A program made the position numbers and the translations under genes. From positions 192,254 through 256,253 of the forward strand of contig CAVWSU010000005.1 of assembly GCA_963757865.1 (NCBI GenBank): 64,000 bases of DNA, in the 5' to 3' direction. Under the pieces are notes generated by a model that was not told the origin of the DNA, did no database searches, and was given only the letters and a program-made list of their open reading frames with translations. Below, piece after piece: positions 18,578-46,085 of the stretch (position 1 is its first letter; each line of letters begins with the position of its first letter). The DNA comes from an uncultured Chloroflexia bacterium. Lineage in GTDB: Bacteria > Chloroflexota > Limnocylindria > Limnocylindrales > CSP1-4.

Positions 18578-19063
18578 ATGCGGTGCCCGGCCTGTGGCGA
18601 ACGAGACACGCGCGTGATCGACTCGCGCGACCTGGACGACGGAAGCACCATCCGCCGCCGCCGCGAGTGCACGCGCTGCTCCAACCGGTTCACGACGCAC
18701 GAGCGCGTGGAGGCCGCACGCCTGGTGGTGGTCAAGCGCGACGGGAGCCGCGTGGAGTTCGACCGCGAGAAGCTCGCGATCGGCCTGCAGAAGGCGCTCA
18801 CCCGCCGGCCCGTCCCGGACCGTGCTGCGGAGCTGGCGGCCGAATCCATCGAAGCGGAGCTGCGCGCCGCCGGCGTCAGCGAGGTGCCCTCGCAGCGCGT
18901 GGGCGAGCTGGCCATGGACCGCCTCCGCCATCTCGACCAGATCGCGTACATCCGGTTCGCCAGCGTCTACCAGTCCTTCGAGGACATCGAGCAGCTCAAG
19001 CGTGAAGTCGACGGGCTGCTGTCGGCCCGCGCCGTCGCCAGCCCCGCCGGGAAGGGAGCCTGA
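18578..19063 (+). CDS. nrdR: transcriptional repressor NrdR
   Basis: [17 protein letters not shown]...[17 protein letters not shown] (zinc ribbon) plus an ATP-cone. AGGAGG lies 7-8 nt before the ATG. Confidence 0.9.
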
Positions 19064-19064
19064 C

Positions 19065-20703
19065 GTGAGCGTCCTGTCGGACCGGGACATCCGCGCCGCG
19101 CTGGAGGCCCGCCGGATCCGGATCGACCCGTACGATCCCGGCTGCCTGCAGCCCTCCTCGGTGGACCTTCACGTCGACCGTGACTTCCGCGTCTTCCGCA
19201 ACAACCGCTACGCGTACATCGACGTCCGCGAACCGCAGCCGGACCTCACGGAGCTCATCCGCATCGAGGACGACTCGCCGTTCATCCTGCATCCCGGCGA
19301 GTTCGTGCTGGGGCAGACGCTCGAATGGGTGGAGCTCCCGGACGACCTGGTCGCGAGGCTCGAAGGCAAGGCGCTGGCGCTCGACACGCCGGTCCCCACG
19401 CCGGGCGGCTGGCGGACGATGGGCGACCTCGAGCCCGGCGACACCGTGTTCGACGAGACGGGAGCTCCGACCGCGGTGCTGGCCGTCACACCGCCCATGC
19501 TCGGACGCCCGTGCCGCGAGGTCGTCTTCTCCGACGGCACACGGGTCGTGGCAGACGCGGAGCACCAGTGGGTCACGGTCGACAAGGCGGGTCGGCGTCA
19601 CGGCTCGTGGCGCCTCGGCGTTCGGACGACCGAGGAGATCCGGCGCAGCATCCGGGTCCGCGGCGAGCTGAACCACCACGTGCCGCTCGCCGGCCCCGTC
19701 CAATACCCGGCTCGCATCGACCTGCCGATCGAGCCCTATACGCTCGGCGCCTGGCTGGGTGATGGGACGAGCACCTCCGCCACGATTACCTCCTGGGACG
19801 AGGAGGTGCTCGAGCAGATCAGCGGTGACGGCTACGGCGTTCGCGCGCTGCCGTACGCCAGGCGCGCGTTCCGGATCGGCGGCGCAGGGCACAGCAGAGA
19901 CGTCGCGACGGGACGCTACCGGCGCAACGAGTCGCTCTCGAGCAGTCTGCGCGAACTGGGGTTGCTCGACAACAAGCACGTGCCGGCGTCCTACCTGCAG
20001 GCCGGCCCCGGCCAGCGCCTCGCCCTGCTGCAGGGCCTCATGGACACCGACGGGTTCGTGGACGACGTCGCCGGGCGTTGCGAGTTCACCAGCACGCGCG
20101 AGAGCCTCGCCGATGGCGTGGTCGAGCTGGCCGCCAGCCTCGGGTTCCGGCCCGTGAAGAGCATCGGCAGGGCCACGCTGAACGGTGTCGATTGCGGGCC
20201 GAAGTACCGGGTGAAGTTCACGCCGGACCGCCCGGTGTTCCGTCTGCCTCGCAAGCTTGCTCGTCAGAAGGCTCCCGACGCGAGCTACCAGCGCTTCCGC
20301 GCGATCGACGTCGTGCGTGAGGTCCCGTCGGTCCCCGTGCGCTGCATCCAGGTGGCATCGCCGCGGGGGCTTTTCCTGGTCTCGCGCGTCGTTCATCCCG
20401 ACCCACAACAGCTCGCTCGGCCGACTGGGCCTGCTCATCCACTCCACCGCCGGCTACGTCGATCCGGGCTGGAAGGGCACGCTCACGCTCGAGCTCTCGA
20501 ACGTGGCGAACCTGCCGATCACGCTCTACTGCGGCATGAAGATCGGCCAGATCAGCTTCTTCCGCATGACCAGCCCGGTCGAGCGCCCGTACGGCAGCCC
20601 GTCGCTGAAGTCGAAGTACCAGGGACAGGACACGCCGACGGCCTCCGAGTTCTACCGCGATTTCGCGCAGGATCGACGACTGGGACCGCGCCGGCAACGC
20701 TGA
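19065..20703 (+). CDS. dcd: dCTP deaminase precursor interrupted by an intein (frame break inside the intein)
   Basis: N-extein [10 protein letters not shown]...LVARLEGK (102 aa). C-extein [31 protein letters not shown]...KSKYQGQ. The GTG lies 1 nt after the nrdR stop. Confidence 0.85.
19371..20409 (+). mobile_element. intein (Hint domain plus LAGLIDADG homing endonuclease), class-3-like
   Basis: Block [15 protein letters not shown] (Ala1, GCG 19371-19373). Block B ..ADAEHQW. LAGLIDADG motifs [10 protein letters not shown] and [12 protein letters not shown]. Block F VPVRCIQV (Cys at 20343-20345). Block G FIPTHN followed by Ser+1. 1039 nt equals 346 codons plus 1 nt. Confidence 0.8.
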
Positions 20704-20716
20704 GGACGGGGGACGC

Positions 20717-21574
20717 ATGACCATTCGTGAGGGGATCGCCTGGTCCGCGGACCTGGGCGGAGGGACGCGCATCGCCCTGGTGCAGGCCGGCACGTTCCGG
20801 TCCGACGCGGGCACGCTGTTCGGGCCCGTGCCACGGTTCATGTGGCAGAAGCTCGTGGCCGACGAGATCGACGCGCACGGGGCACTGCTGCAGGCCCTGA
20901 ACTGCCTGCTGGTGGAGACGCCGGGCGGCCGCGTGCTCGTCGAGACCGGCATCGGCGAGCGCTCCGACGAGCGAACTCGGGAGCGGCGCGACATCCAGGG
21001 TCCTCCCGTCCTGCCTGCCCTGCGCACGGCGGGCTTCGATCCCGGGACGGTGGACGTCGTGGCGTTGAGCCACCTGCACTTCGACCACGCAGGTGGGTTG
21101 CTCGCGGCGGACGGCTCGGCGGCGTTCGGCCGGGCCAGGATCGCCGCCCAGCGCGTCGAGTGGGAGTTCGCCCTTGGCGACAACCCGCGCCTGCAGGCCA
21201 GCTACGACCAGGGCGAACTGCGCCTGGTCGAGGAGGCCGGATGGGCCGGGGCGGTCGACGGCGAGGCCGAGCTGCTGCCGGGCGTGACGGCGATCCGCAC
21301 CGGAGGACACTCGGGGGGCCACCAGGGCGTGGTCGTGCGCGGGCGGGATCGCACCGTGGCGTTCTTCGGGGACCTGTGCATGCGCCCCTGGAGCGCGAAC
21401 CCGCGGTGGGTGACCGCGTTCGACGATTTCCCGCTCACGAGCGTCGAGGTCAAGGCCGGCCTGTTCCGACGGGCCGTCGAGGAATCCTGGACCGTGGTGC
21501 TGTCGCACGAGGCCGAGACGCCGGTCGGGCGGATGGTCGCGGATCGCGACCGGTACCGGTTCGAGCCGCTGTAG
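20717..21574 (+). CDS. MBL-fold metallo-hydrolase
   Basis: [14 protein letters not shown] and [10 protein letters not shown] metal-binding motifs. Confidence 0.75.
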
Positions 21575-29454: not shown

Positions 29455-30248
29455 GCGCACAGGTTTCGGGGGAGGCCCGCTCCCTTGAAGCGCGGCAGGC
29501 GCCGCCCCTGGGCGGGTTCAACCTCACGCTCCTGGCGATCGAGATCAGGCGCCTGCTGCGAAATCGCCGGACCGTGGTCGTCACGCTGGTCTTTCCGGTC
29601 GTGCTGTTCCTGCTGTTCCGCTCGAACAAGCGGGCAGTGGCGCTCACCGGTGGCGAACTGACCGCGGCCACCACGATGATCGGTGTCGCGGTGTACGGCG
29701 CGATGCTGGCGGCCACCTCCGGCGGTGCGATGGTCTCGATCGAGCGCGCGCTCGGCTGGAGCCGGCAGCTCCGGGTGACGCCACTCCGCCCTGCGGCCTA
29801 CGTCAGCGTCAAGATCGCGACGGCGATGCTGCTTGGCTTCGTCTCCGTGACGGTGATCTACGGCGCCGGAGCGATCGACGGCGTGGTCATGAGCCCATCG
29901 ACGTGGGTCGCGACGGGGATCCTCGCATGGGCCGCCTCGGTCATCTTCGCCGCGCTCGGGCTGTTCATGGGCTACCTGCTGCCGGCGGAGAACGTCATGC
30001 AGGTCATGGGCTTCGTGCTTGCCATGCTTGCCGTGCTCGGCGGCCTCTTCTGGCCCGTGAATTCACTGCCGTCGGCGATGCAGACGATCGCCCCCTACAT
30101 GCCGACCTGGGGCGTCGCCGCGATCGCGCGGTTCCCGTTGGTCGGCGGAGCCTTCGATCCGACCTGGATCGTGAGCATGATCGGCTGGACGGTCGTGTTT
30201 GCAGGCGGAGCCACGCTGCTCTTCCGGCGAGACACCCGCCGCGTCTAG
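29451..30248 (+). CDS. ABC-2 type transporter permease
   Basis: 265 aa with 6 TM helices. The start overlaps the ATPase stop. Confidence 0.7.
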   Translation: MSAQVSGEARSLEARQAPPLGGFNLTLLAIEIRRLLRNRRTVVVTLVFPVVLFLLFRSNKRAVALTGGELTAATTMIGVAVYGAMLAATSGGAMVSIERALGWSRQLRVTPLRPAAYVSVKIATAMLLGFVSVTVIYGAGAIDGVVMSPSTWVATGILAWAASVIFAALGLFMGYLLPAENVMQVMGFVLAMLAVLGGLFWPVNSLPSAMQTIAPYMPTWGVAAIARFPLVGGAFDPTWIVSMIGWTVVFAGGATLLFRRDTRRV

Positions 30249-31267
30249 CGCCAGCCGAGCTCCGGGGCGACGTATCGGAGGATGCTCTCGATCGCGTGGG
30301 CGTTGTACTCGACGCCGAGCTGGTTCGGGACCGTCAGCAGGAGCGTGTCCGCCGCCTGGATCGCCGTGTCCCCGGCCAGCTCCTTCACGAGGGCGTCCGG
30401 CTCCGCGGCGTACGACCGCCCGAAGATCGCCCTGGTCTGCGCGTCGAGGTAGCCGACCTGGTCCGACGCCTGGTTATCGCGCCCGAAGTACGCCCGATCG
30501 CGGTCGTCCACCAGGGCGAAGATGCTGCGGCTGACCGACACCCGCGGTTCGCGCTCGTGGCCGGCGGCCGTCCACGCCTCGCGGAACCGCCGGATCTGTT
30601 CGGCCTGGAGCTCGTGGAACGGCACACCGGCGTCCTCGGTCAGGAGCGTCGACGACATCAGGTTCATGCCCTGCTTCGCCGCCCATTCGGCGGTCGCGCG
30701 CGTTCCGGCGCCCCACCAGATACGGTCTCGCAGCCCGGGCGCATGCGGCTCGGGGCGAAGCAGTCCGGGTGGGTTGGGGAACATCGGAGACGGGTTGGGT
30801 TTGGCAAACCGGGCGCCACCCAACGCCTCGAGGAGCACTTCGGCGTGCTGGCGCGCCATGTCGGCGTCCGTCTGGCCCTCGGGCGGCGAGTACCCGAAAT
30901 AGCGGAAGCCGTCGATGACTTGCTCGGGCGAGCCCCGACTGATCCCGAGCTGCAGGCGGCCGCCCGCGATGAGGTCGGCGGCACCGGCATCCTCGACCAT
31001 GTACAGCGGGTTCTCGTAGCGCATGTCGATGACGGCCGTCCCGATCTCGATGCGCGTGGTGCGGGCGCCGACTGCGGCCAGGAGCGGAAACGGCGATGCA
31101 AGCTGCTGGGCGAAGTGATGGACCCGGAAGTAGGCGCCGTCACCTCCGATCGCCTCCACCGCCTCGGCGAGCTCGATCGACTGGATGAGTGCGTCGGCCG
31201 CGGTGCGCACCTGCGAGTGCGACGACGACGACCAGTGTCCGAACGACAGGAATCCGATCTTCTTCAC
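30245..31267 (-). CDS. LLM-class flavin-dependent oxidoreductase
   Basis: 340 aa. MKKIGFLSFGHW.., RIEIGTAVIDMRYENPLYMVEDAG, GRLQLGISRGSPE. Confidence 0.85.
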   Translation of the reverse strand: MKKIGFLSFGHWSSSSHSQVRTAADALIQSIELAEAVEAIGGDGAYFRVHHFAQQLASPFPLLAAVGARTTRIEIGTAVIDMRYENPLYMVEDAGAADLIAGGRLQLGISRGSPEQVIDGFRYFGYSPPEGQTDADMARQHAEVLLEALGGARFAKPNPSPMFPNPPGLLRPEPHAPGLRDRIWWGAGTRATAEWAAKQGMNLMSSTLLTEDAGVPFHELQAEQIRRFREAWTAAGHEREPRVSVSRSIFALVDDRDRAYFGRDNQASDQVGYLDAQTRAIFGRSYAAEPDALVKELAGDTAIQAADTLLLTVPNQLGVEYNAHAIESILRYVAPELGWR

Positions 31268-33329: not shown

Positions 33330-36182
33330 ATGAACGACGTCGCGTCCCCGCGCGTTCGCCTGCCCGCCCGGACGGCGACCTTCCTGTTCACGGACATCGA
33401 GGGATCCACGCGTCTCTGGGAGGAGCACCGCGACGCGATGTCCGCTGCACTCGAAGCCCACGACGCGCTGCTTCGTTCCACCGTCGAGCGGTCCGGCGGG
33501 AGCGTGGTCAAGACGACGGGCGATGGCATGCTCGCGGCCTTCGACCGGGCCGAGTCGGCGATCACCGCAGCACTGGACGGCCAGGTGGCGCTGGCGGACC
33601 ACGCGTGGGCGACGCCCTCGCCGCTTCGGGTCCGCATGGCGATCCATTCCGGAACGGCCGACACGCGGGACGGCGACTTCTTCGGGCCCGCCCTCAACCG
33701 CGTCGCCCGCCTGCTCGCGATCGGGCACGGCGGGCAGGTGCTCGTGTCGGGCACCACCGCTGCGCTCGTCGCCGACGACCTGCCTCCGGGCTCCGAGCTG
33801 ATCGACCTGGGCGAGCACCGCCTGCGGGACCTCGACCGGCCCGAGCACGTCTTCCAGTTCGTGGCGGCGCCGCTGCGTCGCGAGTTTCCCCCGTTGCGTT
33901 CCGGGACTTCGCATCCCACGAATCTTCCGCTGCAGGTCACGTCGTTCGTCGGGCGCGAACGCGAGCTCGTGGACATCGAACGGCTCCTCTCCACGGGACG
34001 CATGGTCACGCTGGTTGGCGTGGGCGGAACCGGCAAGACGCGACTCGCGCTCCAGGCCGCGGCGGAGGTCGTGGAGCGGTACCCCGACGGCGCCTGGCTC
34101 GTCGAGCTCGCCCCGCTCACCGACGCCTCGCTCGTCGGCGCGGAGGTCGCTCGCGCCCTGCGGGTGCAGCCGCAACCCGGACAGCCTCCGCTCGACACGC
34201 TCGTCGATTACCTCCGCTCCAAGCACCTCCTCCTGCTCATCGACAACTGCGAGCACCTGATCGGTGCCGCAGCCGACGTGGCGCATCACCTGCTCGGCCG
34301 CTGCGCCGAGCTCAGCCTGATGGCATCGAGTCGCGAGCCCCTGGGCATCGAGGCCGAGGCCGTGTATGCCGTGCCGTCGCTGGCGCTCCCGGCATCGCTC
34401 GAGGAGGCCGGCGCGCACACGGCCGCCAGCGACGAGGAACTCGAACAGGCCGGTCGGTCGGAGGCCGTCTGCCTGTTCGCCGAGCGGGCGGCCGCGACGC
34501 TTCCGTCGTTCGCGCTCGACCGGTCGAACATGCTCGCCGTGGTCGAGATCTGCCGGCGACTGGACGGCATCCCGCTCGCCCTCGAGCTGGCCGCCGCGCG
34601 GGTCAACGTCCTGTCGGTCGCCGAGATCGCGCAGGGCCTGGGCGACCGGTTCCGCCTCCTGACCGGCGGACGCAGGACCGCGCTGCCGCGCCAGCGGACC
34701 CTGCAGGCGCTCATCGACTGGAGCTGGGACCTGCTGGACGACGACGACCGTCGGCTGCTGCGCCGGCTGTCGGTCTTCGCCGGGGGCTGGACGCTCGGGG
34801 CCGCAGCCAGCGTGACGTCCGAGCGCCCGGAGCGCACGGGCTCCGCGACGGTCGATGCCGCCGCGCGGTTCGCCACGCTCGACGGACTCGGCCGCCTCGT
34901 CGATCGCTCGCTCGTGGCGGTCGATCATGACGACACCACCCGCTACCGGATGCTGGAAACCATCCGCCAGTACGCGGCCGATCAACTGGCCGCGATCGGG
35001 GAGACAATCGCGCTCCGCGACCGCCACCTGGCGACGTTCCGACAGCTGACCATCGACGCGGGGAAGGGCCTGGACGGCCCCGACATGGCGACGTGGCTCG
35101 CGCGCATCGACACGGAGATCGACAACGTGCGCGGCGCGCTCGACTGGGCACTGGAGACGGACCCGGAGGCCGCCCTCGAGATGTGCGGCTCCATGGCCCG
35201 CTACTGGCGTTCCCGGAACATGGCGTCCGAAGCGCCCGACAGGATGAGACGCTCCATCGATCGCGTCCGGGCACTCGCCGAGCCGGCGTCGGCGGCGGCG
35301 GCCCGCGCGCGGGGGGTGCTGTTGGCCCGTGCCTTCGCGGCCTACGGCGTCATCGCGGTGGGGGCCGGGCGCTCGGACGCCGCCGCCGTGGCGGAGGAGG
35401 CGGTCAGGATCTCCCGGGAGGCGGGTGACGGCCCCGCCATCGTCGACGCCCTCGCGACCTACGTGAACTTCAAGGCGCTGTTCGGTGACGGCGAGGATGT
35501 CGACACCTGGCGCTCGATGGCCCGCGAGGCGCTGGCTATCGCGACCGACCTCGGAGACGCGACCCGCATCGCCAGGGCGCAGTCCGTGCTGGCCTTTCTC
35601 GAGGCGCCCCTCGATCCCACGGCGGCGGACGCGTGGCTCGAGCAGGCCAGCGAATCGGCCCGCCAGTCGGGCAACCCGCAGGAGATCGCGTCCCTCAGCC
35701 AGGTCCGCGGGCGCATCGCCGCTCGCACGGGCCGGCTCGACGATGCGCAACACTGGTTCCGACAGTCGCAGGCGCAGTTCCGAGCCATCGGCGACCGCCG
35801 GTTCGAGCTGTCGGCCCAGAGCGAGCTCGCTCACGCCCTCCGTCGCTCCGGGGCCATCGACGCTGCGGAGACGGAGTACCGCCAGACGATCCATGGCTGG
35901 CAGCACAGCGGAAACCGCGGAGCGGTCGCCAACCAGCTCGAGTCCATGGCGTTCCTCGCCATTGGTCGCGGTCGGGGTGAGCGTGCCGCCCGCCTGCTCG
36001 GCGCGGCCGAGGGCCTTCGCGAGATCGCAGGGGCCCCCATGACCGCCTCGGAGCACGTCGAGTACGACGGCGAGGTCCGCCGGCTTCGCGAATCGCTTGG
36101 GGCGGATGACGTGCGCCGCGCCTGGGCCGAGGGTCGCGAGCTGTCCTCGGACGAGGCGGTCGCCCTGGCGCTGTCCGGTTGA
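33330..36182 (+). CDS. class III adenylate/guanylate cyclase domain fused to a STAND-type P-loop NTPase and TPR repeats (950 aa)
   Basis: FLFTDIEGSTRLWEE, VKTTGDGMLAAF, GPALNRVARL (cyclase). Walker A GVGGTGKTRLA, LLLLIDNCEH. TPR-like C-terminus. Confidence 0.85.
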   Translation: MNDVASPRVRLPARTATFLFTDIEGSTRLWEEHRDAMSAALEAHDALLRSTVERSGGSVVKTTGDGMLAAFDRAESAITAALDGQVALADHAWATPSPLRVRMAIHSGTADTRDGDFFGPALNRVARLLAIGHGGQVLVSGTTAALVADDLPPGSELIDLGEHRLRDLDRPEHVFQFVAAPLRREFPPLRSGTSHPTNLPLQVTSFVGRERELVDIERLLSTGRMVTLVGVGGTGKTRLALQAAAEVVERYPDGAWLVELAPLTDASLVGAEVARALRVQPQPGQPPLDTLVDYLRSKHLLLLIDNCEHLIGAAADVAHHLLGRCAELSLMASSREPLGIEAEAVYAVPSLALPASLEEAGAHTAASDEELEQAGRSEAVCLFAERAAATLPSFALDRSNMLAVVEICRRLDGIPLALELAAARVNVLSVAEIAQGLGDRFRLLTGGRRTALPRQRTLQALIDWSWDLLDDDDRRLLRRLSVFAGGWTLGAAASVTSERPERTGSATVDAAARFATLDGLGRLVDRSLVAVDHDDTTRYRMLETIRQYAADQLAAIGETIALRDRHLATFRQLTIDAGKGLDGPDMATWLARIDTEIDNVRGALDWALETDPEAALEMCGSMARYWRSRNMASEAPDRMRRSIDRVRALAEPASAAAARARGVLLARAFAAYGVIAVGAGRSDAAAVAEEAVRISREAGDGPAIVDALATYVNFKALFGDGEDVDTWRSMAREALAIATDLGDATRIARAQSVLAFLEAPLDPTAADAWLEQASESARQSGNPQEIASLSQVRGRIAARTGRLDDAQHWFRQSQAQFRAIGDRRFELSAQSELAHALRRSGAIDAAETEYRQTIHGWQHSGNRGAVANQLESMAFLAIGRGRGERAARLLGAAEGLREIAGAPMTASEHVEYDGEVRRLRESLGADDVRRAWAEGRELSSDEAVALALSG

Positions 36183-36231: not shown

Positions 36232-39200
36232 ATGCGCGTGGTGAACGAGATCGCGTCCTCTCTCGTCCCCGCTCCCGACGGCCCGGACGGCACCGCGGCC
36301 ACTCCGTCGCGCGCCGCACCTGCACCCGAACCGTCCAGCGCGGCTGATCCGACGCCCTCGCCCGCACCCGCCGCGTCCGGCGGCCACTCCTCGGTCCTCC
36401 CGGCCGTCCACACGGCGACGTTCCTCTTCACCGACATCGAGGGGAGCACCCGGTTGTGGGAGGAGCAGCACGAGGTGATGGGGCGTGCGCTCGAGCTGCA
36501 CGACCGGCTCCTGCGGGACGCGGTCGACGGGTCGGGCGGGACCGTGGTGAAGACGACCGGCGACGGGATGCTTGCCGCCTTCGAGCGCCCAGCCTCGGCG
36601 CTCCTCGCCGCCATCGAGGCCCAGCGCGCCATGGACCAGCACGCATGGCCGCTGCCGGAGGCGCTCCGCGTCCGCATGGCCGTCCATTCCGGCTCGGCCG
36701 AGACGCGGGACGGCGACTTCTTCGGCCCCGCCCTGAACCGGGCGGCGCGCCTGCTGGCGATCGGCCACGGGCGCCAGGTGCTCGTCTCCGGTTCGACCGC
36801 GGCGCTCGTCGCCGACGACCTCCCCCCGCAGTCGGAGCTCCTCGACCGAGGCGAACACCTCCTGCGTGACCTCGGCCGGCCCGAGCACGTCTACCAGCTG
36901 GCGGCGCCGGGACTCCAGCGGGAGTTCCCGCCACTGCGGTCCGTATCCCAGCACGAGTCGAATTTGCCGCAGCAGGCCACGTCGTTCGTGGGCCGCGAGC
37001 GGGAGCTGGCCGAAGTGGCGGCGCTCCTCGAGTCGGCGCGCCTGGTCGCGCTCGTCGGTGTCGGCGGAACGGGCAAGACTCGCCTTGCGCTGCAGGCCGC
37101 TGCGGATCGGCTGGAGCGCCACCGGGACGGCGCCTGGCTGGCGGAGCTGGCGCCGCTCTCGGATCCCGACCTGGTGGTGCAGGCCATCGGGCGGTCGCTG
37201 AAGATCCAGGAACAGCCGGCGCAGCCGCTGATCGACACCGTGCTGGATTTCCTGCGGGCCAAGGAGCTGCTCCTGGTCCTCGACAACTGCGAGCACCTCA
37301 TCGCGGCCGCCGCCGCCATGTCCGAGCGGCTGCTGGCGGGCTGCCCGCACCTGCGCATCATCGCCACGAGCCGTGAGCCGCTCGGGGTCGCCGGCGAGGC
37401 GGTCTATGCCGTGCCGTCGCTCGCGCTGCCGGCGGCACCGGACGGGCCGGGCGGCCCGGCCACGCCCGATGACGGCGAGCTTGCCGAGATCAGCCGGGCC
37501 GAGGCGGTCCGGCTCTTCGTCGAGCGGGCCACCGCGACGCTGCCCTCGTTCGCGCTGGACGCGACGAACGCGGCGGCGGTCGTGGAGATCTGCCGCCGGC
37601 TCGACGGGATCCCGCTGGCGCTCGAGCTCGCCGCCGCGAGGATCAACGTCCTCTCCGCCGACGAGATCGCGCAGGGACTGGTCGACCGGTTCCGGCTCCT
37701 GACCGGCGGCCGGCGCACCGCGGTGCCGCGGCAGCGCACGCTGCAGGCGCTCATCGACTGGAGCTGGGACCTGCTGGGCGATGACGACCGCCGGCTCCTG
37801 CGCCGGCTGTCCGTGTTCGCCGGCGGCTGGACGCTCGATGCGGCCGTCGCGGTCGCGGCCGATCCGCCGGCGGGGGCCGACGGCGCGCAGCCCGTCGGCG
37901 GTGGCGCCGGCCGGCTCGCCGTCCTCGACGGGCTGGGCCGCCTGGCCGACCGGTCGCTGGTCGTTGTCGACCACGGTGCCGCGACGCGCTACCACATGCT
38001 CGAGACGATCCGGCAGTACGCCGGCGACCAGCTGAGCGCCAGCGGGGAGACGGCCGACCTGCGGGACCGGCACCTCGCGTACTTCCGCCGCCTGGCGCTG
38101 GAGTCCGGGCGGGAGCTGGAAGGCGCGAAGATGGCCGTCTGGCTCGGACGTCTGGACGCGGAGGTCGACAACGTGCGGGCCGCGCTCGACTGGGCCTTCG
38201 AGACGCGCCCGGAGGATGCTCTTCGCGTGTGTGCCGCCCTGGTGCAGTACTGGCGGTCCCGCGCCATCGCGTCCGAGGGCCTGGAGCGCATGCACCAGGC
38301 GGTGGACCTCGGGCGACGCTGGTACGGCGCGCCGTCGGCGACCCCCGAAGGGGATCGAGCGGCGCTCGTGGCCCGCGTGATGGCGAACACAGCCCAGCTG
38401 GAGGCAACGCGCACCGGCCAGGGCGGCACGCCGGAGCTCGCGGCCGAAGCCACCGCCTTGGTCGCCGAGTCGGGAGACCAGGTCGCGATAGCCGAAGTCG
38501 CCGTCGCCATGAGTTTCGCCGGCGTCGCCGTCGACGGGTCGATCGCCACCGACGGACCCGTCGGCGAGAGGGCGCAGGTCGCCGTGAGGCTTGCCGAGGA
38601 GATGGGCGACTGGTACCGCACCAGTCTGATCCAGACCGGCTTCGCGATGTACGAAGATGGCCGGCAGCCGGGCACGGGACGTGCGTGGCTGGACCGCGCG
38701 GCCGAGTCCGCCGCCCGCAGCGGCAACCCGTTCGCGATCGCAAACGTGGCACAGGCCCGCGGCCGGGCGGCGAGCATGGCCGGCGACCTGGTCGAGGCGC
38801 GACGCTGGTTCGACGACGCCGTCGCCCGCTTCCGCTCGATCGGCGATCGCCTGTTCGTCCTGGTCATCGAGAGCGAGCTCACGCACGCGCTGCGACGCGG
38901 CGGCGTGCTCGACGAGGCCGAGGAACGATACCGGCGCACCATCCGGGAGTGGCAGCGCAGCGGCAACCGGGGGGCCATAGCACACCAGCTCGAATCGTTC
39001 GCCTTCATCGCCGTGGCCAGGGGAGACGGCATCCGCGCCGGTCGTCTGCTCGGCGCGGCCGAGGCGCTCCGCGAGGCCGCCGGGGCGCCGATGACGGACA
39101 TGGAACGCCGGGAATGCGAGACGCAGCTTCGACTGCTGCGCGAGGTGGGCGACTCCCGGGCGCTGGCTGAAGCCTGGGCGGGAGGCAGGCGGATGACGGC

Positions 39201-39234
39201 CGACGAGGCGGTGGCGTTCGCGCTCTCCGACTGA
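36232..39234 (+). CDS. paralogous cyclase-STAND NTPase-TPR protein (1000 aa)
   Basis: Same motifs and order as 33330..36182 (FLFTDIEGSTRLWEE, GVGGTGKTRLA, LLLVLDNCEH). By eye the cyclase domains are roughly two-thirds identical. Confidence 0.85.
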   Translation: MRVVNEIASSLVPAPDGPDGTAATPSRAAPAPEPSSAADPTPSPAPAASGGHSSVLPAVHTATFLFTDIEGSTRLWEEQHEVMGRALELHDRLLRDAVDGSGGTVVKTTGDGMLAAFERPASALLAAIEAQRAMDQHAWPLPEALRVRMAVHSGSAETRDGDFFGPALNRAARLLAIGHGRQVLVSGSTAALVADDLPPQSELLDRGEHLLRDLGRPEHVYQLAAPGLQREFPPLRSVSQHESNLPQQATSFVGRERELAEVAALLESARLVALVGVGGTGKTRLALQAAADRLERHRDGAWLAELAPLSDPDLVVQAIGRSLKIQEQPAQPLIDTVLDFLRAKELLLVLDNCEHLIAAAAAMSERLLAGCPHLRIIATSREPLGVAGEAVYAVPSLALPAAPDGPGGPATPDDGELAEISRAEAVRLFVERATATLPSFALDATNAAAVVEICRRLDGIPLALELAAARINVLSADEIAQGLVDRFRLLTGGRRTAVPRQRTLQALIDWSWDLLGDDDRRLLRRLSVFAGGWTLDAAVAVAADPPAGADGAQPVGGGAGRLAVLDGLGRLADRSLVVVDHGAATRYHMLETIRQYAGDQLSASGETADLRDRHLAYFRRLALESGRELEGAKMAVWLGRLDAEVDNVRAALDWAFETRPEDALRVCAALVQYWRSRAIASEGLERMHQAVDLGRRWYGAPSATPEGDRAALVARVMANTAQLEATRTGQGGTPELAAEATALVAESGDQVAIAEVAVAMSFAGVAVDGSIATDGPVGERAQVAVRLAEEMGDWYRTSLIQTGFAMYEDGRQPGTGRAWLDRAAESAARSGNPFAIANVAQARGRAASMAGDLVEARRWFDDAVARFRSIGDRLFVLVIESELTHALRRGGVLDEAEERYRRTIREWQRSGNRGAIAHQLESFAFIAVARGDGIRAGRLLGAAEALREAAGAPMTDMERRECETQLRLLREVGDSRALAEAWAGGRRMTADEAVAFALSD

Positions 39235-39386: not shown

Positions 39387-41441
39387 ATGTCGCTGCTCCG
39401 TCGCGAAGCGCAGGCGAAAGAGCGCGCAGCAGGGAACGCCCCTGCCGCGCAGTCGCCGGCTGCGCCGTCGCCGGCCACGCCTGCCGCGACGCCCGCGGCC
39501 GTGCCCCCCGCCGGGTCCGTTGCGGCTCCGCCTGACCCACGTCCCGACGCATCACCCCGGCCGGCCACGGCTCCCGGCACGGCCGTCGCACCCGTCGCCC
39601 CGACCGCGGCCATCGCGCCGGCTGTGCCCGCGTCGCCGGCTGTGATTGCGTCACCGACCGCGCCTGCCACGCCCACGATTCCCGCAACACCGGGCACGGC
39701 GTCCGCGCCGGCCGCGGCATCGACGGCACGGCTGGCCTCGAGCGTCACGGGTCGCGACCAGCTGCTCCTCGACCTCCGGGTGCAGCTGCACGCAGAGGTC
39801 GTCGGTTCCTTCGACTCACTGCTCGGGGTCACGGACGCGGCGGACCTGCGCGCAAGGGTCACCACGCTCGTCGAGCGGGTGATCGGCCAGGCGCAGATCG
39901 GCGTGACGCGGGACGAGCGGCTCCGGTTCATCGACGAGGTCATCGACGAGATCACGGGGCTCGGCCCGCTCGAGCCACTCCTGGCCGACGAGACCATCAC
40001 CGAGATCATGGTGAACGGACCCCGCCAGATCTACATCGAGCGACGAGGGAAGATCCTGCGCGTCGACAGCGCGTTCATGGGTGACGAGCACGTCCTGCGG
40101 ATCATCGACCGGATCATCGCCCCGCTGGGACGCCGGATCGACGAGTCGAGCCCCAGGGTGGACGCCCGGCTTCCCGACGGCTCGCGCGTCAACGTGATCA
40201 TCGAGCCACTCTCGCTGGTCGGGCCCGTGATCACCATCCGCAAGTTCGCCGCGCGGCCGTACACGGTCGAGGACCTCGTGGGGTTCGGCACGTCGACGGC
40301 CGAGATGTTCGAGTTCCTGCGGGTGTGCGTCGAGGCCCGGCTCAACATCTTCGTCTCCGGCGGGACCGGTTCGGGCAAGACCACGTTCCTGAACGTCCTG
40401 TCCTCGTTCATCCCGAACGACGAGCGGATCATCACGGTCGAGGACGCGGCCGAGCTGCAGCTGCGCCAGGATCACGTGGTCACGCTCGAGGCGCGCCCCC
40501 CGAACCTCGAGGGCGAGGGCGAGATCACCATCCGGGACCTCATCCGAAACGCCCTGCACATGCGTCCCGACCGGATCATCGTCGGCGAGTGCCGGTCGGG
40601 AGAAGCCCTGGACATGCTCCAGGCGATGAACTCCGGGCAGGAGGGCTCCCTGTCCACCGGCCACGCGAACACGCCGCCGGACATGCTCCGACGCCTCGAG
40701 ACGATGGTGCTGATGACCGGCTACGAGCTGCCGCTGCGCGCCATCCGCGAACAGATCGCCTCGGCCGTCGACGTGATCGTCCACACCGCGCGCCTGAAGG
40801 ACGGTTCGCGCAAGGTCGTCAACATCACCGAGGTCTACGGGATCGAGGACGACGACATCCTCACGCAGGACATCTTCGCGTTCGAGCAGACCGGCGTCGT
40901 GGACGGCAGGATCCAGGGGCACCTCTCTCCGACCGGGATCCGCCCGACGTTCATGCGCAAGCTGATCGCCTCGGGCGTCGCGCTTCCACCCGGCGAATTC
41001 GGCATCCCGCCGGAGGATCCCGCGCGACCGGGACCCCTGGGGAAGGGCCGGTGGGGCGCGGGCGAGTCCGCGCAGGGGTCGGATGTGTCCGGCGCGCGTG
41101 TCGGCCGGGGCCGGGTGGTCAAGGCCGGGGGCATGGTCTACGTCTCGTCGATCGGGCCGGTCGATCCCGAAACGGGCCGCGTGGTGAGCTCGGAGATCAG
41201 GGAGCAGACGCGCCAGTGCCTGCGCAACCTGAAGTCGTCGCTCGAGTCGGCCGGGAGCTCCCTGGAGAAGGTCGTCTGGGCGAACTGGTCGCTGCGCGAG
41301 CCCGTCGAGTTCGACACGTTCAACGAGGAGTGGGCGCGCTGGTTCCCGGGCGACGCGCCGGTGGGCCAGGGGACGCTGCTGCCCCCGCTGCACCGGCGCG
41401 CCGGATTCCGGGTCTCGATCGGCGTCATCGCCGAGGCCTGA
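39387..41441 (+). CDS. cpaF: CpaF/TadA-type secretion ATPase with an Ala/Pro-rich N-terminal linker and an in-frame C-terminal RidA/YjgF-like domain
   Basis: ITEIMVNG, Walker A SGGTGSGKTT, ITVEDAAEL, IIVGECRSGEALDMLQAMNSGQEGSLSTGHAN. C-terminus: VKAGGMVYVSSIGPVDPETGRVV..EQTRQCLRNLKSSLESAGSSLEKVV..FNEEWARWF (RidA pattern). Confidence 0.85.
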   Translation: MSLLRREAQAKERAAGNAPAAQSPAAPSPATPAATPAAVPPAGSVAAPPDPRPDASPRPATAPGTAVAPVAPTAAIAPAVPASPAVIASPTAPATPTIPATPGTASAPAAASTARLASSVTGRDQLLLDLRVQLHAEVVGSFDSLLGVTDAADLRARVTTLVERVIGQAQIGVTRDERLRFIDEVIDEITGLGPLEPLLADETITEIMVNGPRQIYIERRGKILRVDSAFMGDEHVLRIIDRIIAPLGRRIDESSPRVDARLPDGSRVNVIIEPLSLVGPVITIRKFAARPYTVEDLVGFGTSTAEMFEFLRVCVEARLNIFVSGGTGSGKTTFLNVLSSFIPNDERIITVEDAAELQLRQDHVVTLEARPPNLEGEGEITIRDLIRNALHMRPDRIIVGECRSGEALDMLQAMNSGQEGSLSTGHANTPPDMLRRLETMVLMTGYELPLRAIREQIASAVDVIVHTARLKDGSRKVVNITEVYGIEDDDILTQDIFAFEQTGVVDGRIQGHLSPTGIRPTFMRKLIASGVALPPGEFGIPPEDPARPGPLGKGRWGAGESAQGSDVSGARVGRGRVVKAGGMVYVSSIGPVDPETGRVVSSEIREQTRQCLRNLKSSLESAGSSLEKVVWANWSLREPVEFDTFNEEWARWFPGDAPVGQGTLLPPLHRRAGFRVSIGVIAEA

Positions 41442-41481
41442 TCGCGCGACCCCTCGGGGGCGGGACCGTGTCAGCCCGCGG

Positions 41482-41922
41482 TCATGCCTCCGCGACGCTC
41501 TTCAGCTGCGCGAGCATCTCGGCCACGTGCGACTTCAGGCCGCGCTCGCCGATCACTCCCAGCACGCTGCCGAGTGGCCCATAGGGCAGTTCCACGTGCT
41601 CGTCGAACGTGAACCGGCATCCCTGGCCGATCGGGTCGAGGCTCCACACCTGTTCGTCGGCCTTCACGCCCGACCCCGACGTCATGTGGAAACGCAGCCG
41701 CCGGTTCTCGTGCCATTCCGTGAGCTCGAGATCCTCCTTCAGCATCGGCCCGACGGCCTTCTCTTCCATGTGCACGCGGGCGCCGACGCCCCGCGAGCCG
41801 GCGTCGAGATACCGGAATTCGTGAAGGCCGACGAACCAGCGCATGACCTTGTCGGGCTCGACCAGGAAGGGCCAGACCCGTTCCGGCGGCGCTGCGATGT
41901 CGATCGACCGGTGCACGTCCAT
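41482..41922 (-). CDS. SRPBCC (START/Bet v1-like) family protein
   Basis: MDVHRSIDIAAPPERVWPFLVEPDKVMRW. GGAGG lies 7 nt before this ATG. Confidence 0.7.
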   Translation of the reverse strand: MDVHRSIDIAAPPERVWPFLVEPDKVMRWFVGLHEFRYLDAGSRGVGARVHMEEKAVGPMLKEDLELTEWHENRRLRFHMTSGSGVKADEQVWSLDPIGQGCRFTFDEHVELPYGPLGSVLGVIGERGLKSHVAEMLAQLKSVAEA

Positions 41923-41960
41923 CGCACTGACCTCCACCAGGTGTGCGAGCGCCACGCTGC

Positions 41961-42248
41961 TCAGACCGGCTGGGCCACCTTCGTTTCCGTGAGCGCCGGC
42001 TCGAGCGTCGCGGTGACGGGGTCGAACAGGCGGACCTCATGGATCGCCGTGTACGGGATCTCGTACTGGCGGAAGATCCCGATGAGCGTTTCCTCCGATG
42101 GAGCCACCCAGTGGCAGTAGGTCATGTTGTCGGCAACACCGCAGAACGTGCTGATCCACTTCACGCCCTCGGGCACCGGCGCCTTCGTCAGGGGTTGCAG
42201 CTGCTCCTCGGTGAAGGCGGCAGGGTGGACCGCAATGTAGCGGGACAT
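41961..42248 (-). CDS. DUF4242-like small protein
   Basis: 95 aa. ..KWISTFCGVADNMTYCHWVAPSEETLIGIFRQYEIPYTAIHEV resembles DUF4242. Confidence 0.55.
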   Translation of the reverse strand: MSRYIAVHPAAFTEEQLQPLTKAPVPEGVKWISTFCGVADNMTYCHWVAPSEETLIGIFRQYEIPYTAIHEVRLFDPVTATLEPALTETKVAQPV

Positions 42249-42364
42249 GGAACCCTCCCGGCCCCCAATGGGGCCACGTCATCTCGAGCCGGTCCTGACC
42301 CGTCCGCCGCGAAGCGCGGGCGCGTGGGGTTCACCACGGCCGGGGCGGCGTTCGACTCAGCACC

Positions 42365-42456
42365 GCTCGTCGCGGGTCGGTCTCGCCGGTGGCTCGGCGC
42401 GGTCGAGGCGGCCTGAGCATGGCCGCGCGTCAACGCCCCCCGCGTGTCCGACGAGC
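42365..42456 (-). promoter_or_regulatory. conserved structured leader element, copy A (upstream of the DUF4242-SRPBCC operon)
   Basis: 92 nt. RNA sense: GCUCGU..CGCGGGGGGCGUUGACGCGCGGCC-AUGCUCA-GGCCGCC..CGCCG-AGCCAC-CGGCGAGACCGACCCGCGACGAGC. Lies 117 nt upstream of the start codon. Confidence 0.45.
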
Positions 42457-43203
42457 ATCCACCGACTCTGCCGCAGCACAAGTGCCGAAGGACAGGTTTC
42501 GCACCCGCGCGCCCGACTCGTCGCCGGGTCGACTACCCGCCGACAGGCGCGAAGCTGTTGAACACCGGGTAGCCGTCGCGAACCCGATCAGTCGGTGGCT
42601 TGTAGGCGCGATTGGGGACAGCGGGAAGGTGGCCCGATGCGGGTCAAGACCCGTACGGCTCGGCGTCGGTCAGCGCTGCATCCGACCGTTCGTCGCCGGC
42701 CACGGCGGAACACCTCCCAGGACACGTGAGGTCGTCACTGAGATCATTTCCGGTGGAGCGCTGGGGCGGGCCACCTCGGCCAGCACTGCCGCACGGGGAG
42801 GCATGACCGAACGGGATGACGGGCGGGGCTGCGTGGTGATTCCGACGAGGAGCGCGATCATCACGGCCACGAGAAGCTGCTGCCCGCCGCGCGACTGGTG
42901 CGACGCTGCGCGAGGCACAGCCAGGGAAGGGTCCACGATTTCGGCCACAGCATCGGGTGCCGGAGACCGCTCGGAATGGCGATGGATGGGTCGTGGCCTG
43001 ACGCGCGCACGCAGGCGCTGCGTGGACACCGGTTCGAGAGCTTCGGGACGCTCGGGCGGCACGGTCGGGGCCTCGTGCGCGGGGACAGCCGCCGAGGATC
43101 CAACGCTCCCTGGATCATGGTGATCGCATCGGTGCCGTGAGCCGTAACGCCGACGTATCAGGCGCGGCTGGACCACGGCTCGTGGCCTGGGGCAGGGCGG
43201 CCG

Positions 43204-44067
43204 TCAGCCCGAGCTTTCGATCCCCGTGAACCGATACCCTTCGCCGGCGCGCTCCACGTGGCCAAGCTCGGTGAGGTGGAAGCCGTGGACCAGCGCGTGG
43301 TGACCGGACGCGCGGTCGAGGAGCCGACGGCGGGTCGCCACGGTCTGCGCCGCGTCGACGTCCATGCGGCTGGGCCAGTCCGGGTGGGCGACGTGCTCCG
43401 CGTGGAGGACCGCGTCGCCCAGGGCAAGCAGCTCTACCGCGCCGATCTCGACCTGGATGGCCACGTGGCCCGGCGTGTGGCCGGGCGCGGGGATGATCCG
43501 TACCCCTGGTGCCACGTCCACCTCGCCGTCGGTCAGCTCGAGCAGGCCGGCCTGGCGGAGGGGCAGGAGATGGAGTCGTGCGATCGAGGCGAGGTAGTCG
43601 TCGGCTGGCCGCACCGGTCCGGACCCGAGCCAGTAGTCCCACTCGAGCCCCGACATGACGTGGCGGGCCTTCGGGTACCGGGGGACCCGGACGCCGTCGC
43701 GCTCTACGGTGAGCCCGCCGATGTGATCGGCGTGGGCATGCGTGATCAGCACCAGCACGATCTCGCCGGTGGTGACCCCGGCAGCGCCGAGGGACCCCTC
43801 GGTGCCGCCGATCGGTGCGTTCCATTCGGCCGCCAGATCCTCGCCCGCCCCGGCGTCGAGCAGGACCGGCCCGTCGGCTGTCCGCACGAGGAGCGGATGG
43901 TAGGGAAGGGGCAGCATGCCATCGGAGTCGAGCCGGCCCGCCAGGAGCGTCGCGAGTCGCGCGGGCTCGACATCCGGAAAGACATCGCCGACGTCGTAGG
44001 CGACGACGCCGTCGGAGAGGATCTCGACCGCAGACGTCCCGGCATGGATCGCGGGCTGCCCCGTCAT
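43204..44067 (-). CDS. MBL-fold metallo-hydrolase
   Basis: LITHAHADHIGGL, PAPGHTPGH. AAGGAG lies 7 nt before the ATG at 44067. The ORF is open to 44127. Confidence 0.75.
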   Translation of the reverse strand: MTGQPAIHAGTSAVEILSDGVVAYDVGDVFPDVEPARLATLLAGRLDSDGMLPLPYHPLLVRTADGPVLLDAGAGEDLAAEWNAPIGGTEGSLGAAGVTTGEIVLVLITHAHADHIGGLTVERDGVRVPRYPKARHVMSGLEWDYWLGSGPVRPADDYLASIARLHLLPLRQAGLLELTDGEVDVAPGVRIIPAPGHTPGHVAIQVEIGAVELLALGDAVLHAEHVAHPDWPSRMDVDAAQTVATRRRLLDRASGHHALVHGFHLTELGHVERAGEGYRFTGIESSG

Positions 44068-44179
44068 GGCCAGTCTCCTTCGAGTCTGATCGGAGTGACG
44101 CGACAGGCTGAGAGTCGAGCCGCTCATCGTCCGTCATTCAGCCTGACCCGCCATGCGTCCACGGCACAGGAGCCGGACG

Positions 44180-44271
44180 ACTCGTCCGGGTCGGTCTCGC
44201 CAGTGGCTCGGCGCGTCCCCGGCGGCCTGAGCATGGGCCGCGCGTCAATACCCCCCGCGCGCCACACGAGC
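44180..44271 (-). promoter_or_regulatory. conserved structured leader element, copy B (upstream of the MBL hydrolase)
   Basis: 92 nt with the same architecture as copy A. Core GGCGAGACCGACCC, CGCCGAGCCACUGGCG and GCGGCC..GGCCGC are conserved. Confidence 0.45.
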
Positions 44272-44348
44272 ATTCGCTACGTGTGCCTTGCCGCAAGTGC
44301 CGAACGATAGGAGATCAAGTGGAGGGCCTGCCGGCACGAGAGCAGACG

Positions 44349-44369
44349 CTTGCCACACGCGTGTGCAAG
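44349..44369 (-). terminator. candidate terminator hairpin after the SRPBCC gene
   Basis: Near-perfect palindrome cttgc-c-acacgcgtgt-gcaag lies 38 nt downstream of the stop at 44408. No clear U tract. Confidence 0.3.
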
Positions 44370-44407
44370 GCCCCGCGGTCCGCTACTTGCCCTGGGCCAC
44401 GAACGGG

Positions 44408-44854
44408 TCAGGCGTGCGCCGCGATCTTCGCCTCGGCGAGGGCCTTGAAGTCGGCGAGCATCTGGCGCGTCTGCCGCTCGACCCAGCCCTTGGTCACGAG
44501 ATCCTTGATGAACCCGGGCCAGTGGCCCGGCATCTCCCAGTCGGAGTCGATGGTCAGACGGGTCGCCTCGCCGTCGGGCTCAAATCGCATGACGTTGTCC
44601 ATCGGACCCGTGTCGCTGTGTTCGTGCATGAGCCGCAGCGGCTCCACCTCGATGATCCTGTAGGTCGTCTTCACCTCGAAGCCCATGAGCCGCATGCTCG
44701 CCACGTACGTCGTCCCGACCTTGTCCAACGGCCCGTCGACCTCCAGGTGGCCGATCCGCGGCATCCAGTCTTCCCAGTGCGACGTGTCGCAGTAGAACGC
44801 CCAGACGTGCTCGACGGGCGCCTCGACGCGGATCTCCTCGCGCAGGTGTTGCAT
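44408..44854 (-). CDS. SRPBCC family protein
   Basis: MQHLREEIRVEAPVEHVWAFYCDTSHWEDW. GGAGG lies 5 nt before this ATG. Confidence 0.7.
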   Translation of the reverse strand: MQHLREEIRVEAPVEHVWAFYCDTSHWEDWMPRIGHLEVDGPLDKVGTTYVASMRLMGFEVKTTYRIIEVEPLRLMHEHSDTGPMDNVMRFEPDGEATRLTIDSDWEMPGHWPGFIKDLVTKGWVERQTRQMLADFKALAEAKIAAHA

Positions 44855-44866
44855 GACCGCCTCCAT

Positions 44867-44949
44867 GCACACGCGGGTCGGTCTCGCCAGTGGCTCGGCG
44901 CGGTCTCGGCGGCCAGGATCTGGACCGCGTGTCGGTGCCCCCCGTGTAC
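44867..44949 (-). promoter_or_regulatory. conserved structured leader element, copy C (immediately upstream of the SRPBCC gene)
   Basis: 83 nt with the same core. The outer helix is GUACAC/GUGUGC rather than GCUCGU/ACGAGC. Its 3' arm lies next to the Shine-Dalgarno sequence. Confidence 0.45.
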
Positions 44950-45144
44950 CGGCTACCGTTCGCCGCCGCTGGCGCGCGACAAGAGGCCATTCGGACCACT
45001 GGGCAGGCCGTCTGGCAGGAGGCTGGCCGTCGTACCGATGGTCGACAGGACCCGGCCTCCTGGGCATGCTCGCTCAGCGCCTGCCCACCCCACACCGCGA
45101 CGCGGAGTGGCGCAGCATGTGCCGGCACGCACGGAGGGAGGCCC

Positions 45145-46085
45145 ATGCGCTCGTTTCGGTTCATCGCGGACCTGTCCGCGATCGTGGATGGACGGACGCT
45201 CGCCGAGAGGGCCCGCCGAGCCGAGTCCATTGGCTACGACGAGATCGTCCTGGGCGACCACCTGCTGGAGCAGCTGGCTCCCATCCCTGCGCTGGCAACC
45301 GTCGCCGCGGCGACCGACCGGATCCGCATCGGCACGTTCGTGCTCAACAACGACCTGCGCCACCCGGCCGTGCTCGCCCAGGATCTCGCCACGCTCGACG
45401 TTCTGAGCGGGGGTCGCCTGGAGGTCGGGATCGGAGCCGGATGGAACGAGCCCGAATACGCCGCCATCGGCCTCGCCTTCGACGGCCCCGGCCGCAGGAT
45501 CGAGCGAATGACCGAAGCAGTGGCGATCCTCAAGGGCCTGTTCGCCGACGGGGCGTTCTCGTTCCAGGGCACGCATTACACGATCAAGGGACTCGACGGG
45601 CAGCCGAAACCGGTCCAGCGGCCCCATCCGCCGTTCCTGATGGGCGGTGGTGGCCGGCGCATGCTGACGTTCGCGGCCCGGGAGGCCGACACCGTGGGGC
45701 TCGCGCCCATCGCAACGGGGGAGGGTCGGGCATCGTCGACGACTGCATGGCCGCGGCGACCGAGCGGAAGATCGGCTGGATCCGCGAGGCGGCAGGTGAT
45801 CGGTTCGAACGCCTGGATCTCAACGTGTACCCGGCGGTGGGGCCCGTGCGCGTGACGGATGACGCCCTGGGAGAGGCCACCGAGCTCGCGCACCGATTGA
45901 TGAGCCGGCATGGCGGGGACGTATCGGCCGGCGAACTCCTGGAATCGCCGTTCGTCTACATCGGCTCCGTGGACGGGCTCGTCGACAAGCTGATCGCCGC
46001 CCGTGAGCGCTTCGGGATCAACTGCCTGACGGCATTCGACATGGACCAGCTGGCGCCTGTCGTCGAACGGCTGGCTGGGACGTAG
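45145..46085 (+). CDS. LLM-class F420-dependent oxidoreductase, with a frame break
   Basis: MRSFRFIADLS.., VLGDHL, RIGTFVLNNDLRHPAVLAQ, GRLEVGIGAGW, PFLMGGGGRRML. After LAPIATG the protein continues in another frame (..IVDDCMAAATERKIGWIREAAGDRFERLDLN..). G5 run at 45717-45721. Confidence 0.75.

Follow-up and report, generated by a model that had tools for sequence, protein, structure and literature searches.

Three copies of an RNA element of about 85 nucleotides (nt) lie within a total span of 2.6 kb on the minus strand of a 64,000-nt stretch of DNA from an uncultured Chloroflexia bacterium (contig CAVWSU010000005.1, positions 192,254 to 256,253), here called the window, in whose coordinates all positions below are given. 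They are real 5′-leader RNA elements and ordinary members of a catalogued Rfam family, RF03169 or c-di-GMP-II-GAG (clan CL00127), not of a new RNA class. The best explanation overall is that each copy is a variant riboswitch aptamer of the cyclic di-GMP-II (c-di-GMP-II) type, in its GAG form, placed at the 5′ end of its messenger RNA, a reading drawn from sequence comparison to which we assign a probability of about 0.88. The three copies belong to the family over their full length, each lies in the leader position and in the orientation of its gene, the helices P1 and P3 covary across relatives, and the family as a whole precedes a large and diverse set of genes rich in predicted secreted proteins. 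We discuss below this evidence, the nature of the ligand, the explanations that would dispense with a riboswitch, and the genes that the three elements precede.

Three aptamers of a catalogued family

An initial annotation, made as a first reading of the window from its letters alone, described an element repeated three times in the sense orientation of the downstream gene, with the stretches GGGGGG, CGCCGAGCCAC(C/U)GGCG and GAGACCGACCC invariant. The repeats are present where it placed them, by alignment as well as by Rfam and our own model; the sense orientation holds for 3/3 copies, and the invariant stretches occur in all three. The same annotation took the element for a candidate novel RNA, matched to no riboswitch class, and here the outcome is the one it had itself named as refuting: Rfam cmscan, run over the whole window at gathering thresholds (40 bits for RF03169), puts all three copies in RF03169. 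All 86 positions of the model are covered at each of the three sites, RF03169 scores best there among the families of its clan, and Rfam E-values between 5e-8 and 4e-12 for the 64-kb window exclude a chance match. Routine annotation with Rfam would name every one of the three, and the claim of a discovery therefore does not stand. The copies, with their scores under Rfam and under R1, our covariance model, which combines the three copies with the Rfam structure, are as follows.

42366..42449, minus strand: copy A, RF03169 aptamer; cmscan 54.7 bits, model R1 86.6 bits
44180..44264, minus strand: copy B, RF03169 aptamer; cmscan 62.2 bits, model R1 95.9 bits
44867..44951, minus strand: copy C, RF03169 aptamer (P1, P2, P3 and pseudoknot strands); cmscan 70.8 bits, model R1 95.1 bits

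Aligned with one another, the aptamer cores of A, B and C show 87% mean column identity over 85 columns, and neither cmscan nor model R1 finds a fourth copy in the 64-kb window. Besides matching the RF03169 model in full and above the gathering score, they have the same P1, P2, P3 and pseudoknot strands, the conserved GAGCCAcUGGCGAGACCGACC and the 5′-leader position. They differ from the family in having G at model position 12 (3/3 copies) where the consensus has A, G being found there in ~11-25% of relatives, and in the leaders of 112-117 nt that follow A and B, as against a family median of 20 nt.

Relatives were gathered in two scans. The first, covering one genome per species with a degenerate pattern of the 3′ half of the element, gave at least 119 loci, in which model R1 makes at least 94 matches in 77 sources; three of these are in the window, so that at least 91 are further ones. 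The second, covering metagenomes, used a pattern of the 5′ half with the pseudoknot and the joiner left free, a design meant to let covariation of the pseudoknot show, and added 127 matches, which brings the further matches of both scans to at least ~220. Counts for the first set, here and below, are among the matches listed. In that set, 66/74 loci with matches come from Chloroflexota metagenome-assembled genomes (MAGs) labelled Chloroflexia or Limnocylindria, and an Rfam check of 20 first-scan loci called 35/36 elements RF03169 and 1/36 RF03170, the sister family c-di-GMP-II-GCG; this last element, at L108:7342-7426, reads GGCGAGCCCGA and adjoins a GAG copy. Clusters of 2-3 copies within a few kb, like the one in the window, are common (for example, L025, L066, L075, L111, L127 and L195). 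On a contig of a MAG labelled Gemmatimonadales (L003), two RF03169 aptamers stand in tandem on the minus strand (467-552 and 725-811), 173 nt apart and with one open reading frame (ORF) downstream.

Fold and covariation

In the Rfam structure P1 has 11 bp, P2 3 bp (GGC/GCC) and P3 8 bp, with a loop of 18 nt; CGCC of the P3 loop and an upstream GG can pair with GGCG and CC of the 3′ joiner, as the pseudoknot strands of the c-di-GMP-II fold. In the window copies P2 is GGC/GCC (GGU/GCC in B), P3 has 7-8 bp in all three, and P1 consists of 6 bp in A (CGCGGG/CCCGCG) and, in C, of GUACAC-GGG with CCC-(GC)-GUGUGC, that is, 3 + 6 bp with a 2-nt bulge, all of it inside the probable transcript. The pseudoknot complementarity is found in 3/3 window copies and in >97% of relatives. 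Support from the first alignment is broad, with two-sided changes in 11/11 pairs of P1 and 8/8 pairs of P3, and with 85% of cells paired under the Rfam fold compared to 31-36% in slid controls, while 0/500 shuffles reach the observed score.

The initial annotation had drawn a leader of three helices, possibly a riboswitch or protein-binding RNA. A structured, sense-oriented 5′ leader of riboswitch type is what the family describes, but the two inner hairpins find no support: every complementarity that was listed is present in the sequence, yet hairpin 2 (GCGGCC/GGCCGC) and hairpin 3 (CGCCG/CGGCG) are not the fold favoured by comparative data, having two-sided changes in just 1/6 and 1/5 of their pairs in the first alignment and in 1/6 and 0/5 in the metagenome set. 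These hairpins join the P3 5′ strand to the 5′ strand of the pseudoknot and the P3 3′ strand to its 3′ strand, and the near-invariance of these strands makes such pairing possible in ~95% of sequences; where P3 covaries to GCGCGAU/AUCGCGC, in L015, hairpin 2 breaks. Nested minimum-energy prediction (RNAfold) returns the three-hairpin fold because the pseudoknot cannot form in such a prediction.

Position and regulon across the family

A downstream sense ORF was counted when it had at least 100 codons (>=100 aa), a GC content at third codon positions of at least 0.8 and a start within 60 nt downstream of the element. Such an ORF follows 49/75 matches of the first set, as against 8/75 in a divergent-strand control, and 99/111 matches of the metagenome set, at a median distance of 20 nt. 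The 91 downstream proteins of the first set match 99 Pfam families, the most frequent being SRPBCC (8, of which 2 are from the window), SnoaL (5), and Kelch, collagen-repeat and alpha/beta hydrolase (3 each). Under a simple hydropathy rule, which is not a trained predictor, an N-terminal hydrophobic segment resembling a signal peptide or that of a lipoprotein is present in 58/90 proteins of the first set and in 76/99 of the metagenome set. The small regulon of SRPBCC and hydrolase genes envisaged at first thus turns out to be a local sample of a family with highly varied downstream genes, most of them for signal-peptide proteins, and copies elsewhere do not always precede genes for SRPBCC, metallo-beta-lactamase (MBL) or DUF4242 proteins: SRPBCC and DUF4242 recur, but as a minority. 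Second-messenger riboswitches are known for large, disparate regulons and many copies per genome (PMC7266159), and by analogy the present regulon, mostly extracytoplasmic and with multiple copies per locus or MAG, resembles one governed by a second messenger.

A close relative, L073 (CAVZXW010000007.1, from a MAG labelled uncultured Chloroflexia), aligns over 1740-2840 with 41448-45109 of the window through flanking genes that are 94% and 90% identical. Between these flanks L073 has one aptamer and a different gene, for a signal-peptide protein, in place of the three aptamer-gene cassettes of the window; the cassettes therefore make up a variable island between conserved genes.

The ligand pocket and the probable ligand

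Variant classes of c-di-GMP-II, possibly sensing other signalling molecules, were reportedly proposed by Weinberg et al. in PNAS in 2017. For comparison with the parent class, RF01786, a sequence of the crystal structure 3Q3Z served as a lead only; at an offset of 6 it fits 13/13 of the ligand contacts listed for that structure. Those c-di-GMP contacts are A13, A14, U37, G39, U60, A61, C68, A69, A70, C71, C72, G73 and A74 (PMC7288161). As for ligands, the validated changes of riboswitch specificity in a 2022 paper include no c-di-GMP-II variant, and further changes appear there only as proposed (PMC9295807).

All comparisons of residues with the parent that follow are made through this lead sequence of 3Q3Z. 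Parent and window copies belong to one clan and share the order P1, A, P2, GAG, P2′, A61, pseudoknot strand, joiner, CCGA and P1′; the parent sequence GAG-UU-AGUA-GUGC-AA-CCGACC corresponds to GAG-CC-ACU-GGCG-AGA-CCGACC in the window copies, all of which have GGCG-A68-G69-A70-C71-C72-G73-A74. Kept are A61, A70, C71, C72, G73, A74 and G39. Changed are A13 (to G), the pair A14-U60 (to G-C), C68 (to G) and A69 (to A-G, with one extra nt), so that G-C replaces A-U as the P2 pair beside the pocket, the last pair of the pseudoknot has its bases exchanged and AGA stands in the joiner in place of AA; the window copies, in short, do not carry the residue set of the parent pocket. The classes differ too in their hosts, GC-rich Chloroflexota for RF03169 and mainly Firmicutes for the parent, and in the platform, which in RF03169 adjoins the Shine-Dalgarno (SD) sequence. 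The parent class has terminator platforms.

The sister family RF03170 shares the scaffold and the genomes of RF03169 and is set apart by C at position 70. The window copies without exception have A70, together with G69 and G73; it is presumably to these three nucleotides that the names GAG and GCG refer, by which convention the parent would be AAG. A functional parallel is offered by c-di-GMP-I (GEMM) and its c-AMP-GMP variants, which also have many copies per genome before disparate genes, many of them for surface proteins, and in which small changes of the pocket switch the ligand (PMC7266159), whereas their fold and sequence are unrelated to RF03169. Within the metagenome set (L120-L219), the joiner after the pseudoknot strand (positions 68-70) is AGA in ~70% of 127 matches, and otherwise AAC (9), AAA (7), GGA (7), GAC (4) or AGC (2-3). 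These joiners make up more pocket subtypes than the two variant families of Rfam; at positions 69-70, AAA is like the parent c-di-GMP-II.

By analogy with the parent, the ligand would be c-di-GMP or a relative of c-di-GMP. That it is c-di-GMP itself, the elements then being functionally ordinary c-di-GMP-II riboswitches on a Chloroflexota scaffold, is a serious possibility that falls somewhat short of an even chance. The common scaffold and the pocket residues retained (A61, A70, C71, C72, G73 and A74, the greater part) are consistent with it, as is a regulon of surface and secreted proteins, which matches what is generally known of c-di-GMP control elsewhere, in Clostridioides for instance. 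Yet contact positions differ (A14-U60 to G-C, C68 to G, AA to AGA), it is on account of its changed pocket nucleotides that Rfam separates the GAG family, and a minority AAA joiner, parent-like at 69-70, on the same scaffold suggests that the difference is selected. The ORFs scanned over the 64 kb of the window include none with a GGDEF, EAL or HD-GYP domain, which counts weakly against c-di-GMP. More tentatively still, GAG-type aptamers might sense not c-di-GMP but a different and perhaps uncharacterised signalling nucleotide in control of an extensive regulon of secreted and surface proteins in soil Chloroflexota (bins labelled Chloroflexia or Limnocylindria), with the joiner subtypes (AAA, GGA, AAC, GAC and AGC) as added ligand specificities and the cassettes exchanged as modules.

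Candidate promoters and explanations that need no riboswitch

Upstream of the element, 85/89 family members have an A-N3-T hexamer whose T lies 10-15 nt before the conserved GGG (model position 9), against a background of ~2 per position. The corresponding boxes in the window are listed here.

44955..44960, minus strand: -10-like AACGGT upstream of C, its last T 12 nt before the conserved GGG, at the family-wide box position
44269..44274, minus strand: -10-like AATGCT upstream of B (sequence and family box), with -35-like TTGCGG at 44291-44296 and a 16-nt spacer
42454..42459, minus strand: -10-like GATGCT upstream of A (sequence and family box), with -35-like TTGTGC at 42476-42481 and a 16-nt spacer

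The two pairs of A and B (TTGTGC/TTGCGG, 16 nt, GATGCT/AATGCT), together with the upstream TTCGGCACTTG, had been pointed out in the initial annotation and are present in the sequence; they are plausible promoters. A consensus promoter scan of 41900-45200 reported neither of these -35/-10 pairs nor any other promoter-like site. Judged by the family box, transcription would start ~5-7 nt before the GGG. The outer helix described at first does covary as the P1 of the family, but its arm GCUCGU in A and B is another matter: in both copies it overlaps the -10-like box (in A, 42451-42456 against 42454-42459), and since that box is kept at its position family-wide, the RNA of A and of B probably lacks the arm.

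An element acting at the DNA level, in which the palindrome GCCAnTGGC would be a transcription-factor operator and the remainder conserved promoter-proximal sequence, is very improbable. The near-perfect and almost invariant palindrome GCCAC(T/C)GGC, ~70 nt downstream of the -10-like box, is what could suggest one, but conservation extends over ~75 nt and on one strand only, the pairing of P1 and P3 survives two-sided changes, the halves of the palindrome have separate RNA partners (GCC with GGC of P2, GGCG with CGCC of the loop), and the element, strictly sense-oriented, directly adjoins the SD sequence. Less credible again is a dispersed repeat of the repetitive extragenic palindrome (REP) or miniature inverted-repeat transposable element (MITE) kind that lies between genes by chance: copies are many per genome and often clustered, and the cassettes here differ between close relatives, but against chance placement stand the sense ORFs counted above in both sets and in the control, the fixed distance to the start codon, the fixed -10-like box upstream, and the fact that neither terminal inverted repeats nor target duplications were noted. 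An RNA class unrelated to any known family, the original proposal of an annotation that could match the element to no known class, and in keeping with a nested minimum-energy fold that looks like a plain three-hairpin leader, can be set aside with near certainty, as the full-length RF03169 matches of 3/3 copies score 15-31 bits over the curated cut-off and 35/36 of the relatives checked are likewise assigned to the family.

A possible mechanism and what weighs against it

As variant c-di-GMP-II aptamers, the elements would fold into P1, the 3-bp P2 and the P3 hairpin, and CGCC of the P3 loop would pair with the downstream GGCG in a pseudoknot that brings the joiner A-G-A-CCGA beside the P1/P2 junction, the ligand site of the parent class. 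Binding of a small signalling nucleotide would then stabilise P1 and the pseudoknot and change access to a ribosome-binding site (RBS) just 3′ of P1, as it is placed in copy C. Because the SD sequence normally lies a few nt past P1, translation initiation is the most likely output, and by analogy the likely function is that of a second-messenger-type riboswitch acting on it.

In unconstrained ensembles the RBS finds most of its pairing partners in the sequence shortly downstream of it, and those inside the aptamer are chiefly the 3′ strand of P1 and C71-C72; the platform sequence CGGGAGG resembles the aptamer 5′ strand CGGGAGGC. Such modelling suggests that a ligand-stabilised P1 may free the SD sequence, as in an ON switch, but aptamers swapped between platforms give about the same small opening. 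Many members have a box (G)CGUCCC between P1 and the SD sequence (GGGAGG or AGGAGG), for example at L075:2666-2690, L117:3074-3095 and L085:1015-1040. Pairing of this box with GGGAC (45-49), with GACGC of P3 or with GGGAGGC (9-15) was considered and rejected, the box being constant, by inspection, while those positions vary. A terminator-based platform for A and B is likewise unsupported, there being no terminator-like site in 41900-45200.

Several observations weigh against the riboswitch reading. Three concern the aptamer itself: model position 12 is G in A, B and C alike, as against A in most of the family and the ligand-contacting A13 in the parent; P1 of copy B has only CGGG/CCCG as canonical pairs inside the Rfam match, hence 4 pairs in the probable transcript; and the pseudoknot strands are 97-99% invariant even in the metagenome set, where they were unconstrained, and so receive no support from covariation. 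Others concern the output. The consensus scan of 41900-45200 found no intrinsic terminator, and in the thermodynamic model the leaders that follow A and B show no coupling to the aptamer but fold on their own. Enforcing the aptamer (RNAfold) raises the unpaired probability of the RBS from 0.38 to 0.47, a weak effect (+0.09) in which 31 of 76 members become more open, 7 less and 38 stay similar, and with swapped aptamers the opening is +0.07, about equal to that of the native combinations. Finally, no report of a validated ligand for RF03169 was found in the literature.

It is in this last respect that the locus retains its value, as three intact aptamers of such a family precede small proteins with ligand-binding folds (SRPBCC and DUF4242) and a lactonase-like hydrolase. 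The survey of the family, with its bias to Chloroflexota, its regulon of mostly secreted proteins, a -10-like box ~12 nt upstream, an SD sequence ~10 nt downstream and several pocket subtypes, may aid the search for the ligand.

Downstream genes and leaders in the window

Pfam bears out the genes named in the initial annotation, a DUF4242-SRPBCC operon after A, an MBL hydrolase after B and an SRPBCC gene after C. Together with the leaders that separate them from the aptamers, they are arranged as follows.

44852..44864, minus strand: platform of copy C, with SD GGAGG at 44860-44864, ATG at 44852-44854 and 12 nt from aptamer to start (sequence)
44408..44854, minus strand: SRPBCC (Polyketide_cyc2), downstream of C (Pfam 3.1e-17)
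44068..44179, minus strand: 112-nt leader from B to the MBL start codon, beginning CGUCC (sequence, RNAfold)
43204..44067, minus strand: MBL-fold hydrolase, downstream of B; ATG with AAGGAG as SD (Pfam Lactamase_B 5e-17)
42249..42365, minus strand: 117-nt leader from A to the DUF4242 start, with a long imperfect hairpin followed by GGCCCC-AUU-GGGGGCC abutting the SD GGGAGGG (RNAfold)
41482..42248, minus strand: operon of SCO4226-like/DUF4242 (41961-42248) and SRPBCC (41482-41955), downstream of A (Pfam)

In copy C the SD sequence begins 2 nt past P1, and not about 5 nt past the arm GUGUGC as had been stated. Homologues of its SRPBCC gene, at 54-61% identity, occur 12-17 nt past aptamers in L024, L006, L071, L207, L202 and L212, and aptamers in L129 and L192 are followed by homologues of the DUF4242 gene (55-62% identity); in the DUF4242 leaders of these two loci, as in that of the window, a hairpin GG(C/U)CC-loop-GGG(G/A)CC stands immediately next to the SD sequence. 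The MBL gene does not recur downstream of aptamers in the sampled relatives. Its product matches the NCBIfam model AidB at 2e-32, a score under the cut-off of that model, and the structures 7y7u, 4le6 and 1p9e in the PDB, and is predicted to belong to the AidB/methyl-parathion-hydrolase-type lactonase branch.

The spacers after A and B, estimated at first as about 115 nt, measure 117 and 112 nt, and neither leader has a match in Rfam. The words they share (GGGUCAGG, GGCUCGA and AUGACG) were considered as a second conserved RNA element and rejected, as they stand in differing predicted structural contexts; they are more likely remnants of duplication. Between the MBL stop codon and copy A, the ~750 nt at 42457-43203 hold no confident gene, only ORFs without a Pfam match, and may be a degraded cassette. 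Divergent from copy C is a gene for an F420-dependent LLM-class oxidoreductase (44890-45855, plus strand; probable start near 45141), and further luciferase-like genes lie in the window at 3129-4064 and 30245-31267.

Other features of the window

The window is chromosomal, with 72% GC and with thrS, infC, rplT and pheT at 56-64 kb. Two adjacent large genes on the plus strand (33330-36182 and 36232-39234), 2-9 kb from the aptamer cluster, combine a class III adenylate/guanylate cyclase domain with a STAND NTPase and TPR. They are followed on the same strand, at 39387-41441, by a secretion ATPase of the TadA/VirB11 type (T2SSE) with a C-terminal RidA/L-PSP domain, an unusual fusion. Farther off, a 632-aa ORF at 18822-20720 (plus strand) has dCTP-deaminase-like and LAGLIDADG domains and may encode an intein-containing dCTP deaminase.

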